Both the position numbers and the translations under genes were made by a program. The notes under the pieces are model-generated. The model did no database searches. It was not told the origin of the DNA and saw only the letters and a program-made list of their open reading frames with translations. From Chlorobiota bacterium (GTDB taxonomy: Bacteria; Bacteroidota; Bacteroidia; Bacteroidales; JAADJA01): a stretch of DNA of 64,000 bases. The stretch lies in the NCBI GenBank assembly GCA_013151015.1, contig JAADJA010000117.1:3510-67509 (forward strand), read 5' to 3'. Positions 8,221 through 56,209 of this stretch are shown here, piece after piece; the first letter of the stretch is position 1, and every line of letters begins with the position of its first letter.

Positions 8221-8532
8221 TTAAACGCAACTTGAAGGTTTGGGGATACCGGCAATCTTCGTTGATTTTTTCAAAGGTGCCCCGGGGAACATCCCGTAAA
8301 ATGTTTTCACGTCCACAATCCCGGATTTATTGATTCCACGGATCGATAATGCATCACCGCTATTGAATTTATTCCTCAAATACTCAAGCATCTCAAAATG
8401 CTTATCGGTAAGTTCAACGCCTTCCTCGGCGGCAATTTCTTTCGCAATTTCGGGTGTCCATTGTGAAGGATCGGTAAAATATCCCTCTTCATTTACTTCT
8501 ACAGTTACTCCTGCATATGTTTTTTGTGCCAT
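8221..8532 (-). CDS. TusE/DsrC/DsvC family sulfur relay protein
   Basis: 103-aa ORF ending ..IAGIPKPSSCV, the family-typical C-terminal arm with the penultimate Cys. Only that one Cys is present, which is TusE-like. Confidence 0.85.
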   Translation of the reverse strand: MAQKTYAGVTVEVNEEGYFTDPSQWTPEIAKEIAAEEGVELTDKHFEMLEYLRNKFNSGDALSIRGINKSGIVDVKTFYGMFPGAPLKKSTKIAGIPKPSSCV

Positions 8533-8593: not shown

Positions 8594-8663
8594 CAGACAC
8601 ACGTCCACAGGAAAGTTGAGACACACGTCCACAGGAAAGTTGAGACACACGGCCGTGTGTCTT
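8594..8663. repeat. Two 24-bp copies of a hairpin arm plus spacer, followed by a complete 20-nt palindrome
   Basis: Sequence is (c/g)agacacacgtccacaggaaagtt at 8594-8617 and 8618-8641, then gAGACACACGGCCGTGTGTCTt (palindrome 8643-8662). Confidence 0.85.
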
Positions 8664-8673
8664 TACATCCCTT

Positions 8674-9372
8674 CTAATCTTTTGGTTTAAGCTGCTGTGC
8701 GGTTAAATTTTTCAGGAACGACATCATGAAACCCATCCCTTTTTTCATTTCCGGGCTGTTCATTTCCCTCAACACTTTCCAGATGGAATATTCAGGGATA
8801 TTGTCGGTTTCCAGGTTTTTGTAAACCACCACGGCATTATGAACAGATTCGAGCATATCGGGCTGGGTAATTTCTTTCACCATTTCCAGGATCGGCACAA
8901 TCTTATCGGCCAATTCCCTCACATCTTCCAAAGTGAAATGTGTAATGATATTATCACCAACCTTTGCCATTTCCTTAAAGAAGTCGATATAGCCTTTCTG
9001 GTCCAGTTCGTTCACTTTCTCGATAGCCGTAAGCCCTACCTGATGGGCAATAGGAGATACATCTTTCACGAAATCGTTCATGCTTTCCATCATTTCAAGC
9101 ATGTTGTTGATGTTCTCAAGATTTGCCAACAAACGGATGCCAATGGATGCAAGCGTATCGGCATCCAGTTCCACCCCTTCCTTATCAAGCCTTTGAACAG
9201 TAGTCTGAAAAACGTCCTTGCCCACTATTGACAAGTCATCCACAAGGTCGGTCATCGTTTCGCGCGATTGTTTCTGGGCGTAAACCTCTTCCAACACCAA
9301 ATCAAGCTTCCTGTTGATCTCATTGATTTGCTCTTGCATGTTTACTTCTGTTGTTATTTTATTTTCTGACAT
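8674..9372 (-). CDS. DUF1641 domain protein
   Basis: 232-aa helical ORF directly downstream of the SQR-like flavoprotein. That pairing and the general sequence character fit DUF1641, from memory. Confidence 0.65.
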   Translation of the reverse strand: MSENKITTEVNMQEQINEINRKLDLVLEEVYAQKQSRETMTDLVDDLSIVGKDVFQTTVQRLDKEGVELDADTLASIGIRLLANLENINNMLEMMESMNDFVKDVSPIAHQVGLTAIEKVNELDQKGYIDFFKEMAKVGDNIITHFTLEDVRELADKIVPILEMVKEITQPDMLESVHNAVVVYKNLETDNIPEYSIWKVLREMNSPEMKKGMGFMMSFLKNLTAQQLKPKD

Positions 9373-11659: not shown

Positions 11660-14428
11660 TCAATTTACCCAATCAGGCAGAACACACTCTTTGCCAATAG
11701 TCTTCAAATAAGCTTCAAAATCAATTTTAAGGCTTTTGTGCATCACTTTGGAATTCCCTTCATGGCAGTTTAAACAAGCACCGACTGTCAATATCCTTTT
11801 TTGTTCCTGAACATCGAAAGCCCGAAAATCCATCCTTGTTGAATGCCCTTGTTTTTCTGAATCCTGTGACAACAAATCATTGTTGAAAGGAAACTGTATC
11901 CAGGCATCTTCGGGCAATCCATCGTATTTGTTCAACTCATATTGAGGGGTAAATTCCCAACTTCCATGGCCATTTTCGATTATGTAATCCAAATCGCCCC
12001 TGCCATAGCCCAAAGCCACCGGATTATTATGACATGATTTGCAGCTCCTCCCCTCACCAACTATGGTATGAGGGGCAGCCGGGGCATACAAACGGTGGAA
12101 AACCAAGGGTTCACCGGAAGATGAATAACTCCCTTTATCAATGGTCATGATCATACCGGGAATGGCACATTCAACTTTCGAGTTTTTACCGGATCTGCCA
12201 TAACGCACACCCAATGCGGGAGGCTCGGCCAAAAACCCGCCCACAAATTCAACCCACTCCCCTTCTTTAAATTTGTTCTCCAAAAGGTCGTAACCTTCCA
12301 CCTCTTTATCATAGGCATTGTGGCAGCCTATACACTGCGGTGCCCAAGAAGTGTGGCAAGCCGAACATGAAACATTATCATGTGCATTTCCCCTGGTACA
12401 TGATTCACCAGGTGGTTTTAAAGGGAAAATCGCACCATCCCCTTTCCCAATAAGAAAAGCATTTTTGGATTCATCCATAAAAGTATTCACCAATGGAAAA
12501 GCAGATTCAGAAGTCAATAATATAGGTTTATCCGAATGGGTGAACTTTTTCAAATCAAACACTTTCTTTGATTCGGGATCCAGATCAGAATAATGAATTG
12601 TTTTGGGAACATCATCAAAATGACAATCCGCACATTGGATCTTGACTGCCGATTCTTCGTGCAGATAGATGTTTCCATCTCCCATTACTTCATAGGAGCC
12701 ATGGCAATCAACGCAAAGCAAACCTGCCTTATGGTGAACGTCTTCCTCCTGAAAGCGATAAACCCTTTTATCTTCCATCACTTTATATTCAGGCTTGCCT
12801 GCTACATCCTTCTCTTCAAAAAGGGTCTCGTGCCAGCCTTCATAATTGGTCGAAATCCTTCCCGAACGGCTATGACAACCAAAACAATGTCCGTTGGAGA
12901 TATTCAAATCCAGCGAAGGATGCCCAATGGGGAAAAGGCTATCCGGTTTTTCCGCTCCCTTATAAGCAAGGTGTTCTTTCAGGGTTTGTGAACTATAATT
13001 CAAATGACAAGCATTGCAGCCACCTCCCCTTGACAATTGGTTGATGGGACCGGTTTCAAACTTTTTATTTCCAAGATGGCAATTGGCGCACAAATCCCGG
13101 AGATGTCCTTCTGCCGCCGTATGTCCGATGCTTTCGATATGAAAAAGGGAATCAAGGTTATCCGATTCTCCAAAAACAAATTTATCAACACTCACAATCC
13201 CGCTGTTGGTGGCCATTAAAGAATGGTTCACCCGGTCAGGGATTCCGGGATGGCAATCCATTGTGCAGCATGTATATTTTGCATCGGAAAGGTTGCCGGG
13301 AACAAGCAACATATGTTTATGGGCCTTTTTTTTATCCAAAGTAAAAGGATTTCCCAAATGGCAACTCGTACATCCAATGACTTGTGGATCGTGGGCAGGA
13401 CTAAACCCATGCATTTCATTGTGGCAAACAAGGCAAGCCTCCCTCCTTCCGCTAATTAACGGGACTTCATTTTCGGAAACCTCATTGGAAAGATGATTGA
13501 AAAGCCCTGTTCCCATTGTAAAAACAGATGTTTCTGGTATTCCGTTATCCTGAAAAGGGGATTGCCATTTCCAGTTTTCGCCCCTGAAAAAGAAACCGAT
13601 GATTGTCAGGAGCATATAAATCCAGAAAAGATAAAACAGGCTTTTCTTTGTGATTTGGGCAGCTTTATCTTTCATAATCCGCAACACCCAAACAAAACCA
13701 ATCAACAGGATAACAAACCAAACAACAAATGAAGGATTGGAGAACCAATGCAATATTTCCTGAAATCCCACAAAATACCAAGGCCCTTTCACGACCGGGC
13801 TCAAATTATCATGCAATGGGGCGTTCAGGGCAAAACTTAAAATGGCGATGATGAAAAGGTTGATGAAAAACGTGGACGCCTTGACCCACAATGTCCGGGC
13901 ATGTTCAAGGATAATGATTACCAAAAAAATGGTGGCCGTGGCAACATGATGGACATAAACCAACTGCAAACTCTCACCGTTCCCAAACAGGGCCTTTGAT
14001 AATAGCGAGCCTGCCAGAGGGATTTTTTCCAATAAAGCTGTCAGTATCCTACTGGCCTGTTCACTATCGGGATCCCCTTTCAGGATAAAGCCCGAAATCA
14101 TTACGAACATAACAAAAAGGATACTGATGCTTAGCCGGAACCAGACACCGGAGCTAACCTTCTTTTCTGATTTTATTTTGAAATGCTCCCAAATATGCAG
14201 GAACACAAAAACCAAAAATATCTGTGCGCTCCAATAATGCACATTCCTGAAAAACGCTGCCCCCGGATTGGCAATTATCATTAAACTTATTGAATCATAG
14301 GCAGCGTTCACATCAAACGGAACAGCCAGCACAACCCCGGAAATCGCACATATGAGGAAACTTGCGGTTGCGATGGCACCGTAGGTATCAATGGTTAGTT
14401 GGCTTTTTATTTTGTTTGGCAGTTCCAC
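11660..14428 (-). CDS. Cytochrome b (b6-like, about 7 TM) fused to a multihaem c-type cytochrome domain (11 CXXCH plus 1 CX3CH)
   Basis: 922-aa ORF. Helix B has H-x13-H (NVHYWSAQIFLVFVFLHIWEH) and helix D has H-x14-H (VHHVATATIFLVIIILEH). GPWYFVGFQEIL sits in place of the PEWY Qo motif. Haem-binding sites are CLVCH, CTSCH, CTMDCH, CANCH, CNACH, CFGCH, CVDCH, CADCH, CSACH, CIGCH, CKSCH and CLNCH. Confidence 0.85.
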   Translation of the reverse strand: MELPNKIKSQLTIDTYGAIATASFLICAISGVVLAVPFDVNAAYDSISLMIIANPGAAFFRNVHYWSAQIFLVFVFLHIWEHFKIKSEKKVSSGVWFRLSISILFVMFVMISGFILKGDPDSEQASRILTALLEKIPLAGSLLSKALFGNGESLQLVYVHHVATATIFLVIIILEHARTLWVKASTFFINLFIIAILSFALNAPLHDNLSPVVKGPWYFVGFQEILHWFSNPSFVVWFVILLIGFVWVLRIMKDKAAQITKKSLFYLFWIYMLLTIIGFFFRGENWKWQSPFQDNGIPETSVFTMGTGLFNHLSNEVSENEVPLISGRREACLVCHNEMHGFSPAHDPQVIGCTSCHLGNPFTLDKKKAHKHMLLVPGNLSDAKYTCCTMDCHPGIPDRVNHSLMATNSGIVSVDKFVFGESDNLDSLFHIESIGHTAAEGHLRDLCANCHLGNKKFETGPINQLSRGGGCNACHLNYSSQTLKEHLAYKGAEKPDSLFPIGHPSLDLNISNGHCFGCHSRSGRISTNYEGWHETLFEEKDVAGKPEYKVMEDKRVYRFQEEDVHHKAGLLCVDCHGSYEVMGDGNIYLHEESAVKIQCADCHFDDVPKTIHYSDLDPESKKVFDLKKFTHSDKPILLTSESAFPLVNTFMDESKNAFLIGKGDGAIFPLKPPGESCTRGNAHDNVSCSACHTSWAPQCIGCHNAYDKEVEGYDLLENKFKEGEWVEFVGGFLAEPPALGVRYGRSGKNSKVECAIPGMIMTIDKGSYSSSGEPLVFHRLYAPAAPHTIVGEGRSCKSCHNNPVALGYGRGDLDYIIENGHGSWEFTPQYELNKYDGLPEDAWIQFPFNNDLLSQDSEKQGHSTRMDFRAFDVQEQKRILTVGACLNCHEGNSKVMHKSLKIDFEAYLKTIGKECVLPDWVN

Positions 14429-14451: not shown

Positions 14452-15185
14452 TTAGCGATAAAATTTATCATCTATCCAATTCCGGGGATTATTCTGAATA
14501 TATTTCTTAATTTTCCAATATTCTTTTTGGTCGCGGATAATATGGTCGTGATAATTAATTTGCCAAAATCTGTTTGTCCTGTTAAATTTTTCAATTGGCA
14601 AATCGTGCAAATCAATGAAATCATCAATTTTTGTTGTCACCGATGATTTATATCCGGCAATAAATGACGAAATGGATTTTGGTTGTCGTTTAAATTGTTT
14701 GTGGCCATCGTCGGAATGTAGGGACGCACGGCCATCGTCGGAATGTAGGGACGCACGGCCATCGTCGGAACGTAGGGACGCACGGCCATCGTCGGAACGT
14801 AGGGACGCACGGCCATCGTCGGAACGTAGGGACGCACGGCCATCGGTAGGGACGCACGGCCGTGCGTCTCTACGTACCCACTGTGCGCGTCAACCTGTTT
14901 ATCCGTACGGTTTCTGTTTTTCAAAACAATTATCGCATGGATATGATTTGGCATTAATTGATATTCATCCAAAAATAATTCATGTCGTATTTTAAACGAT
15001 TCAAACCATTCATGATCTGCAATTTTACCAAAATCGGAAAAAATCATTTTCTCATTCTTAATTTCCCCCAATAAATATGCAAAACCTTGGGTGATAAATG
15101 TAATAAAATAATATCCGTTTCGAGAATAATCCCAACCGGGCATCCTGTTTGATTCTATCCGATATTTGTTTTTATATTTATCCAT
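14452..15185 (-). pseudogene. REP-associated tyrosine transposase (RAYT / IS200-like Y1 HUH transposase), frameshifted by an internal repeat expansion
   Basis: The N-terminal ORF (15185-14637) carries the HUH motif (LMPNHIHAII). The C-terminal part continues in another frame as HKQFKRQPKSISSFIAGYKSSVTTKIDD...WQINYHDHIIRDQKEYWKIKKYIQNNPRNW (track ORF 14452-14640). The two halves are separated by the array at 14701-14870. Confidence 0.8.
14701..14870. repeat. Tandem array: six copies of gggacgcacggcc (four full 27-bp units, one 20-bp unit, one leading partial), ending in a near-perfect hairpin
   Basis: The 27-bp units start at 14721, 14748, 14775 and 14802. The 20-bp unit is 14829-14848. The terminal GGGACGCACGGCCGTGCGTCTC is at 14849-14870. 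The units carry a T/C polymorphism (gaaTgta versus gaaCgta). Confidence 0.9.
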
Positions 15186-15210: not shown

Positions 15211-15612
15211 TCATCCCAATTTCACAACGTATTCCCCATTCCCTTCATCAATTGAAAAATCCAAAATAGCCAATGCACTATCCGCAGGACCTTTTATATT
15301 GTTACCGTTCAAACTAAAAGAAGAGCCATGACAGGGACAGGTTAGTTTGTTGTTTTCAATGGAATTGATCTGGCATCCAAGATGGGTACATTTTGAGGAC
15401 AAAAAACGGATATCGGATTTTTCCTTTACGATGATTATTTCACCATGAAAGCTAACCCCTTCCTGGATTTCCGGGGGAATACGGATAAAGCCGGGTTTTG
15501 TCAGTTCCGCCCCCCTTTTAACCGCCATTGCCCCGATTAACACAAAAGGCAGCATCAGCAACCAACTGAGCGACTTCAAAAAATCCTTTCTGCTTATCTT
15601 GTTGTTTGTCAA
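15211..15612 (-). CDS. Rieske [2Fe-2S] protein
   Basis: 133-aa ORF with an N-terminal anchor (SRKDFLKSLSWLLMLPFVLIGAMAV) and both cluster-binding boxes, CTHLGC and CPCHGS. Confidence 0.85.
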   Translation of the reverse strand: MTNNKISRKDFLKSLSWLLMLPFVLIGAMAVKRGAELTKPGFIRIPPEIQEGVSFHGEIIIVKEKSDIRFLSSKCTHLGCQINSIENNKLTCPCHGSSFSLNGNNIKGPADSALAILDFSIDEGNGEYVVKLG

Positions 15613-55588: not shown

Positions 55589-56209
55589 TTAAAATATCCG
55601 GGGTTTGAAATCTTTCTGGTTCACAATAGCTGCACTGTTGCCAGTTGCCCTAATTATGAAAAAGCCTTTTTTCTCGGCCATCCGGTCGGCATGTCCATCC
55701 GCTGTAAGGAAGGCCATGGCGGCATAAATGGTTTTGTTGGCATACTCGGGCAGGTAAACCTTTGCTTTTTTCATGGTTTCCTGAAAGTCGGCCACATCAT
55801 CAGGGCGAAGGGTCGTCTTTACTTCCACAACCACTATTTCGTTACCATTATGGGCAATTATGTCAAACTCGAAATTCTCACCGTTTTTATTCCCTTTCCT
55901 GCGTTCGGACGTATCGGTGACGGAAATCCCCCATTTTCCCAATACATTTATCAGGTCGCCCTGCACAAGCGATTCAATAAGTTTTCCCCACTGTGAGGTG
56001 AAAAGTTGTTCGAGCTTGTTCAGTTTTTTGTCGGTCTCCTGGAACTTCTTGTCGGTTTCCTTAAACTGTTTATCGGTTTCTTGGAACTTCTTGTCGGTTT
56101 CCTTAAACTGTTTGTCAGTTTCCTGAAACATCAACCATACCTTTTCAAAACTCAAAGGTTCCCCATAATTTTCCAGGGGTTCTTCAACCCGCTTATTGTC
56201 TTTATCCAT
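55589..56209 (-). CDS. Heptad-repeat (ETDKxFx)5 protein with a C-terminal PD-(D/E)xK nuclease-like domain (DUF3782-like)
   Basis: 206-aa ORF. The N-terminus is QETDKQFKETDKKFQETDKQFKETDKKFQETDKKLNKLE. The C-terminus FEFDIIAHNGNEIVVVEVKTTL fits a D...(D/E)xK core. Confidence 0.6.
   Translation of the reverse strand: MDKDNKRVEEPLENYGEPLSFEKVWLMFQETDKQFKETDKKFQETDKQFKETDKKFQETDKKLNKLEQLFTSQWGKLIESLVQGDLINVLGKWGISVTDTSERRKGNKNGENFEFDIIAHNGNEIVVVEVKTTLRPDDVADFQETMKKAKVYLPEYANKTIYAAMAFLTADGHADRMAEKKGFFIIRATGNSAAIVNQKDFKPRIF
56025..56129. repeat. Five in-frame 21-bp tandem repeats (42-bp higher order) inside the 55589-56209 CDS
   Basis: Units start at 56025, 56046, 56067, 56088 and 56109. The units at 56046 and 56088 are identical. 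Confidence 0.85.

Follow-up and report, generated by a model that had tools for sequence, protein, structure and literature searches.

The 64-kb stretch of DNA analysed here (the window) carries on its minus strand, at 14452..15185, one gene of the TnpA-REP or REP-associated tyrosine transposase (RAYT; REP, repetitive extragenic palindrome) type, which belongs to subclass 2.4 (RAYT group 4) of the HUH single-tyrosine family of single-stranded DNA (ssDNA) transposases. The gene is frameshifted and is probably a pseudogene of recent origin. Its extent was defined by full-length alignment of the protein that is obtained when a repeat array in its middle is collapsed to one copy. Sequences of the gene are quoted for the coding strand.

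The N-terminal open reading frame (ORF) of the gene (14637..15185, minus strand, 182 amino acids), as seen in the ORF translation, starts with MDKYKNKYRIESNRMPGWDY, contains the HUH motif NHIH within MPNHIHAII, crosses the array, which it translates as repeats of PMAVRPYVPT, and ends with a stop at 14637. The C-terminal coding part (14452..14704, minus strand; HKQFKRQPKSISSFIAGYKSS...FWQINYHDHIIR...YIQNNPRNW) was delimited by frame analysis, alignment and the ratio of nonsynonymous to synonymous substitution rates (dN/dS), and its homology to the family (..KQFKRQPKSISSFIAGYKSS..FWQINYHDHIIRDQKEYWKIKKYIQNNPRNW) lies in frame -1 relative to the N-terminal ORF. The C-terminal frame is open from just upstream of the palindrome described below down to its stop at 14452, with coding homology from ..HKQFKRQPKSISSFIAGYKSS on. 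Both the HUH motif and the catalytic Tyr motif FWQINYHDHIIR are present, but they are encoded in different frames and hence not in one polypeptide, as the original prediction, made from the sequence alone, had stated for the HUH half (NHIHAII) and the Tyr half.

Between the two halves lies a 28-nt 'double-foot' REP palindrome (14846..14873; GTAGAGACGCACGGCCGTGCGTCCCTAC on the coding strand) that encodes VETHGRASL. It consists of GTAGAGACGCACGG and CCGTGCGTCCCTAC, joined at the apex, and forms a 14-bp stem with a single A.C mismatch at pair 5/24 and with GTAG...CTAC feet, so that the near-palindrome originally reported at this place is now refined to 28 nt including the feet. The hairpin is followed in the coding direction by a 20-nt unit (14826..14845) composed of CGATGG and CCGTGCGTCCCTAC, that is, the arm with a 6-nt spacer, and by four 27-nt units (14718..14825), each made up of the 14-nt REP arm and a 13-nt spacer; three of these are GTTCCGACGATGG plus the arm (G-type spacer) and one is ATTCCGACGATGG plus the arm (A-type spacer). 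Next comes the ancestral 13-nt flank ATTCCGACGATGG (14705..14717), which was recognised by comparison with an intact orthologue (locus L121), ends at GG·CC (the dot marks a junction here and below), continues as CCACAAAC.., and shares the microhomology GGCC with the hairpin apex. The predicted set of one 20-bp and four 27-bp units of a single arm plus spacer was recovered in the sequence and by Tandem Repeats Finder (TRF; 14703-14845, period 27, 5.3 copies, 99% match). The arm GGGACGCACGGCC occurs in six exact copies at the array, against a chance expectation in the window of 0.5 when up to two mismatches are allowed. The junction of the repeats is the hairpin apex (..GG·CC..; CACGG·CC) and not the foot, and in the ssDNA fold the lone left arm pairs with a downstream right-arm copy instead of the neighbouring arm.

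The 20-nt unit is a 27-nt unit without 7 nt (GTTCCGA). The extra DNA amounts to 128 nt, which is 2 mod 3, and for this reason the HUH and Tyr motifs fall in different frames; the earlier claims that the repeat block is not a multiple of 3 and that the 20-nt unit causes the frame change are thereby confirmed. A CRISPR-like reading of the block was rejected, for the 'spacers' are identical, the units measure 27 nt, and what is repeated is an arm of the adjoining palindrome; several independent REP insertions were likewise rejected on the identity of the spacers. A search of Rfam returned only chance sub-threshold matches.

The ancestral state is preserved in L121 (GCA_024278155.1), in which the RAYT gene (L121:2830-3459) is intact, encodes 209 amino acids, and contains one perfect REP followed by ATGCCGAC.. 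(CTAC-ATGCCGAC). The proposal that alignment to an intact homologue would define the ancestral junction was carried through with this gene, and it agrees with the reconstruction (CTAC-ATTCCGAC). The dN/dS values against L121 are 0.13 for the N-terminal half and 0.02 for the C-terminal half, and no defect other than the frameshift was found. Since both halves have low dN/dS and no further lesion, the inactivation is probably recent; the frameshifted copy would have lost its activity, judging from the separation of the two motifs.

When the array was collapsed to one copy, an in-frame protein of 201 amino acids (..VETHGRASLHSDDGHKQFKRQPKS..) was obtained. At E <= 1e-5, 2,337 homologues were found for it, among which the best is 79% identical over 100% of the length, and it aligned along its full length with 28 homologues at a family identity of 55-82%, so the two halves derive from one RAYT family, as had been assumed. 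N80/H81/H83 (HUH) and Y169 (Tyr motif) are invariant in the 28-homologue alignment. Subclass 2.4 was defined by Quentin, Siguier, Chandler and Fichant (2018, BMC Genomics 19:475) and corresponds to Bertels' RAYT group 4 (PMC6006769); its motifs are NH[IFV]H, WQ and YIxNNP (PMC6006769, Table 1), and NHIH, FWQ and YIQNNP are all present in the reconstructed protein. A profile of the family gave a weak match in the PDB to 4ER8, E. coli TnpA-REP, and a single-sequence phmmer search against the PDB gave only a chance match. The AlphaFold model of the intact orthologue P0001 (79% identical; not the window protein itself) has a mean predicted local distance difference test (pLDDT) score of 79.8, and its top Foldseek match in the PDB was 4ER8, E. 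coli TnpA-REP bound to REP (E = 2.5e-6), followed by the TnpA proteins of ISDra2 and IS608. Residues 94-120 of P0001, which are encoded by the REP, have pLDDT < 50 and are predicted to be disordered, so that the hairpin would lie, in the model, in a disordered loop that links the HUH strand to the helix after it.

These features agree closely with the published account of subclass 2.4, according to which REPs occur as in-frame insertions between HuH and Y, short DNA repeats make the beta3-alphaC loop variable, and some of the REPs have a 'double-foot' form (5' GT[AG]G ... C[TC]AC 3') (PMC6006769). The window gene shares with the subclass the motifs, the long variable loop between the HUH strand and helix alphaC, the double-foot REP placed within the coding region, after HuH and before Y, and the short DNA repeats around it, and the patchy host range across several phyla is a further likeness. 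The intragenic hairpin and the flanking repeat blocks are therefore a published, normal trait of the family and not a new kind of system. The idea that the gene carries a REP-like substrate inside its own coding sequence is upheld by the GTAG-footed REP and by its covariation (below), but describes a trait already in the literature (PMC6006769); in a search of the literature, neither the peptide VETHGRASL nor the sequence of the palindrome turned up. The window copy departs from the subclass in being frameshifted, whereas the published members and the 98 examined here are in frame, in lying in a respiratory operon without flanking REPs within 1 kb, and in having a repeat unit that takes in one complete REP arm.

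The E. coli TnpA-REP (YafM, 4ER8; group 2 or subclass 2.2) resembles the window protein in its HUH/Y1 fold, being the top Foldseek match of the orthologue model, in the GTAG-footed hairpin as presumed substrate, and in the profile alignment over the HUH region and the WQxxYxxHxIR..YIxxNP region. Identity is, however, about 17%, the E. coli REP is bulged and extragenic and flanks the gene in bacterial interspersed mosaic elements (BIMEs), and the E. coli gene has neither an intragenic REP nor a variable loop. The TnpA proteins of the IS200/IS605 family (IS608, ISDra2) have the same fold and use HUH and single-Tyr chemistry on hairpin ssDNA, but IS608 and ISDra2 are true insertion sequences, each end of which has a subterminal hairpin, whereas the window gene has no flanking end structures. 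Insertions of REPs and Rickettsia palindromic elements (RPEs) into unrelated genes (Di Nocera et al. 2013, PMC3733652) likewise consist of a palindromic repeat read through in frame in a permissive loop; here, in contrast, the host gene is that of the REP's own presumed transposase, and the insertion is ancient and heritable, at the same position and in the same frame across phyla.

To compare the hairpin among relatives, 80 metagenomic loci chosen by peptide patterns outside the hairpin were used, so that the sample is unbiased toward it. A VETHGRASL-like stretch is found at the same place in 71 of the 80, and two loci (L190 and L195) have no insert. In the 50 loci with the exact peptide VETHGRASL, 443 of 450 codons are identical (GTA GAG ACG CAC GGC CGT GCG TCT CTA), against a background frequency of 0.04-0.38 for the same codons elsewhere in those genes, and the exact 28-mer is present in 43 of the 71 loci with the stretch. 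Double compensatory changes were found in 8 of the 12 pairs of the stem, with 96% of cells paired, and none of 500 shuffles reached as high a value. In L105 (L105:1117), L165 and L185, translation of this palindrome uses the one alternative frame that is free of stops (RRDARPCVST); the third frame contains TAG. The identity at synonymous sites, the compensatory changes in the stem and the reading in a second frame establish that the constraint acts on the DNA hairpin and not on the peptide.

The exact 22-nt core occurs in at least 120 contigs of GTDB representative genomes, in Bacteroidota, Spirochaetota, Desulfobacterota, Chloroflexota, Planctomycetota, Proteobacteria and others. The 288 palindromic cores in all DNA fetched comprise 138 extragenic ones, 58 that adjoin a RAYT gene and 92 inside one. 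Because 138 of the 288 are extragenic and the hosts are many, the palindrome is a genuine dispersed REP, and by analogy it is presumed to be, in folded ssDNA form, the substrate of the RAYT protein. Some features of the dispersed copies were recorded along with this. Among 94 copies with complete GTA..TAC feet, eight are prolonged by at least six complementary bases (expected, about 0.02), and extended palindromic flanks were seen at L016:223, L025:2121, L029:4294, L070:4827, L074:4200, L098:2458 and L116:3196; at L070 the REP lies in the loop of an apparent terminator hairpin (aaaaaaaattccacccc..ggggtggaatttttt). Such extended palindromes suggest either that the REP inserted into the apices of hairpins or that template switching lengthened the palindrome. 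On a contig from a metagenome-assembled genome of Prolixibacteraceae, a 1.2-kb stretch (L080:6618-7816) contains six exact REP cores spaced 309, 309, 250, 200 and 109 nt apart, with degenerate partner palindromes between them, a BIME-like arrangement. In the flanks of 90 perfect 28-mers (L001-L120), the base immediately beyond the foot is a purine in 79% of cases, and AAT follows the foot on one side only in 26 of the 90 and on both sides in one, so that the palindrome has an orientation in about one third of copies (CTAC-AAT, as in the gene, where it reads L-Q-S).

Repeats next to the hairpin are also widespread in the family. Tandem arrays abut the hairpin at about half of the intragenic REPs; those at the foot were counted at 43 of 92 intragenic and 4 of 138 extragenic REPs. 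In the REP flanks of L001-L120 and L122-L201, the commonest starting point of right-hand arrays is CT·AC, two bases into the palindrome, and the commonest end point of left-hand arrays is G·TAG. A likeness to the inner left arm (ACGCACGG) is seen in many of the 9-nt units of the left-hand arrays, for instance GGTTCGCAC. One intact family member (L011:4865-5544) has, upstream of its REP, an in-frame insert of 679 nt consisting largely of 27-nt units (HGDDDGRGL-type). The N- and C-terminal halves are nevertheless in one frame in all 80 metagenomic and all 18 GTDB family genes, one of which has a stop. In-frame arrays are thus normal for the family, and the gene is inactivated not by the amplification itself but by the lack of 7 nt. 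The original prediction that serial duplication killed the gene holds in that the gene is broken, but the lesion is the missing 7 nt in one unit. Conversely, an in-frame repeat block as a normal feature of intact homologues had been named as something that would speak against the predicted decay: such blocks do occur, up to 679 nt, and the window copy is still exceptional in being frameshifted.

The arm-only architecture seen in the window, in which the flank and one arm are repeated up to the apex and the other arm follows, is not restricted to RAYT genes. Arm-only arrays joined at the apex were found at 15 of 138 extragenic REPs (e.g. L033, L044, L046, L084 and L090), at 6 of 58 gene-flanking REPs and at 4 of 92 intragenic REPs. 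A repeat and arm search revealed another example in the window itself, about 6 kb from the RAYT gene, where a second REP of the same family (8595..8666, plus strand) lies between the ORFs 8221-8532(-) and 8674-9372(-). Two 24-nt units (left arm and 14-nt spacer) are followed here by a full hairpin, GTTGAGACACACGGCCGTGTGTCTTTAC, at 8639-8666, which is degenerate, differs from the intragenic REP by a compensated pair change (G-C to A-T), and is the only further REP copy in the window.

For the origin of the array we favour hairpin-assisted slippage. A 27-nt segment, the 3' REP arm with the 13 nt downstream of it, would have been tandemly duplicated between GGCC at the apex and GGCC 27 nt further on; as the second GGCC belongs to the ancestral flank (..GATGG·CCAC..), the duplication may have been mediated by microhomology. 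Slipped-strand mispairing would then have expanded the array, aided by the ability of the single left arm to pair with any right-arm copy, and one unit would have lost 7 nt (GTTCCGA), by which the 128 extra bases came to split the HUH and catalytic-Tyr frames and left a recent pseudogene. Slippage is preferred because arm-only arrays occur far from any RAYT gene, because the junction in the window has no CT/CA dinucleotide, and because the characterised TnpA-REP enzymes cut at CT/CA beside the hairpin and not at its apex (PMC8266576). Of the two origins offered at the outset, abortive HUH cleavage and rejoining at the hairpin foot or slippage, the apex junction and the GGCC thus speak for the second, and the foot is not where the repeats join. 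Taken as a whole, that is, family identity, slippage array, loss of 7 nt and recent pseudogene, this explanation is regarded as probable. Several points weigh against it. The 7-nt deletion has no obvious microhomology; the window gene has no REP flanking it within 1 kb, unlike most subclass 2.4 genes; and the contig is apparently from a metagenome assembly. The domain matches of the reconstructed protein, though specific, are below threshold, with 49.7 bits against a cut-off of 80 for NCBIfam REP_Tyr_transpos (NF047646; E = 3.4e-13, the best match) and 21.3 bits against a cut-off of 23 for Pfam Y1_Tnp (PF01797). Moreover, the biochemical work on RAYTs covers groups 2 and 3 (PMC8266576), and a group-4 enzyme might cleave at unusual positions.

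The last point leads to the reading of the array as a footprint of the RAYT itself, which would have acted in cis on the gene that encodes it and created and enlarged the units through round after round of HUH cleavage and strand transfer at the intragenic REP or close by. HUH TnpA-REP enzymes cut ssDNA at CT/CA next to REP hairpins and perform strand transfer (PMC8266576), and both the excess of foot-abutting arrays at intragenic REPs and the preferred CT·AC starts and G·TAG ends in relatives would fit such an activity. The excess is, however, explicable by the much greater age of the intragenic REP, and in the window the repeats join at the apex (CACGG·CC), where no CT/CA cleavage dinucleotide is present, the GGCC microhomology suffices for the first duplication, and arrays of the apex type also occur at extragenic REPs far from RAYT genes; the enzymatic data themselves come from groups other than group 4. 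This origin is considered unlikely. An error of assembly or sequencing, with a real gene that is intact and has only in-frame 27-nt units or a single copy, is quite unlikely, even though the contig is apparently from a metagenome assembly, the array of near-identical 27-nt units (about 170 nt) is as long as a short read so that its copy number is poorly determined, the other 98 of 98 family genes are in frame, and both halves are free of other damage and subject to strong purifying selection. The junction CCCTAC·CGATGG is unique and must occur in reads for a de Bruijn assembler to output it, and the ordered G-type and A-type spacers point to a real, resolved path.

It is also conceivable that the gene is alive and that the array acts as a throttle or switch of expression, by -1 frameshifting or by reversion through deletion. 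A T_TTA_AAC heptamer (14688..14694, minus strand) stands in the sequence directly after the array in the exact register for a -1 slip into the C-terminal frame, which would then read ..KRQPKSISSF... Frameshifting of the -1 type is used by the transposases of IS1 and IS3. A deletion between the right arm of the hairpin and a downstream arm copy, removing 20+27k nt, would restore the frame and would be eased by 14-nt direct repeats that lie 20 nt apart, and the PMAVRPYVPT repeats, out of frame as they are, would fall in a disordered loop that tolerates variation. The TTTAAAC, however, codes for the F-K of the ancestral QFKR, the intact orthologue L121 has it too, and no stimulatory structure lies downstream of it (z = 0.27 for the RNA fold; 38 nt to the nearest stable hairpin), so its register is probably coincidental and programmed -1 frameshifting was rejected. 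Phase variation as a strategy of the family was rejected as well, because none of the 98 relatives has an out-of-frame copy; changes in the number of 27-nt units cannot, in any case, alter the frame. A living, switched gene is accordingly judged to be most improbable. A related proposition, which we hold to be very unlikely, is that the frameshifted copy is conditionally functional, through a rare -1 slip or a 20+27k-nt deletion, or, in a broader form for the whole family, that the intragenic REP is a selected cis-acting master or seed copy that travels between phyla, with the arrays recording RAYT processing in vivo.

The RAYT gene lies between a Rieske gene and a cytochrome b gene in the same orientation as both. 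By ORF and domain searches, the Rieske [2Fe-2S] gene (15211..15612, minus strand) is located upstream, 25 nt from the RAYT start, and a gene for a fusion of cytochrome b and multihaem cytochrome c (11660..14428, minus strand) begins 23 nt after the RAYT stop. The product of the latter, 922 amino acids in length, has an N-terminal cytochrome b domain and a large multihaem cytochrome c region, and gave sub-threshold NCBIfam matches to the ExtP/ExtM cytochromes of selenite/tellurite reduction. The position between the two genes, noted from the beginning as unusual, is specific to the lineage that holds the window and L121, as the insertion is present in L121, with the same synteny (Por_Secre_tail gene, Rieske, RAYT, cytochrome b), and absent from the more distant L202 (Rieske 77% identical), where the Rieske and cytochrome b genes are separated by a 78-nt spacer and neither RAYT nor REP is found. 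This empty 78-nt site in L202 contains no REP or hairpin that could explain targeting. A terminator scan found no intrinsic terminator between the Rieske and cytochrome b genes, and a promoter scan was uninformative, the sigma-70 consensus being probably unsuited to this kind of organism; from the gene layout, an operon transcript would have to read through the RAYT gene. The RAYT gene is compositionally foreign, its G+C content without the array being 31%, against 41% for the window. Synonymous divergence (dS) from L121 is 0.74 for the N-terminal half and 1.8 for the C-terminal half of the RAYT gene, in comparison with 0.10 for the Rieske gene, 0.21 for the cytochrome b gene and 0.41 for the Por_Secre_tail gene. 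The synonymous divergence of the RAYT gene, put at 4 to 15 times that of its neighbours, suggests replacement of the allele by recombination, or a locally different regime of mutation or selection.

Three other tandem repeats were recorded in the window. One at 2626-2771 has a 52-nt unit in 2.4 copies with AGACTTTGAGAAACA-type sub-repeats and stops in all frames; one at 56027-56129, with a 21/42-nt unit in 2.5-4.9 copies, is part of an ORF on the minus strand, where it is translated as (F)KETDKQ/KF repeats; and one at 1368-1430 has a 22-nt unit in 2.9 copies.

The locus is a decayed copy of a described family and by itself changes little. It is, at the same time, a natural case that shows cleanly how an intragenic REP hairpin makes the DNA around it unstable, with the ancestral state fixed by an intact orthologue. 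If the frameshifted copy were conditionally functional after all, the intragenic REP and its repeats would be a built-in throttle on the transposase, and if the intragenic REP were a seed copy, the foot-anchored (CT·AC) and apex-anchored arrays would be a record of RAYT processing in vivo. The comparative data refine the picture of subclass 2.4, in that the 28-nt REP is nearly invariant at synonymous sites, occupies the same place, usually in the same frame, in several phyla, undergoes compensatory changes in its stem, and is accompanied by arrays anchored either at the foot, with a CT·AC start, or at the apex. These regularities of the arrays and of the REP yield predictions that can be tested when a group-4 RAYT is first studied biochemically, and they are relevant to the question whether the REP within the gene is a passenger or has a function in cis.

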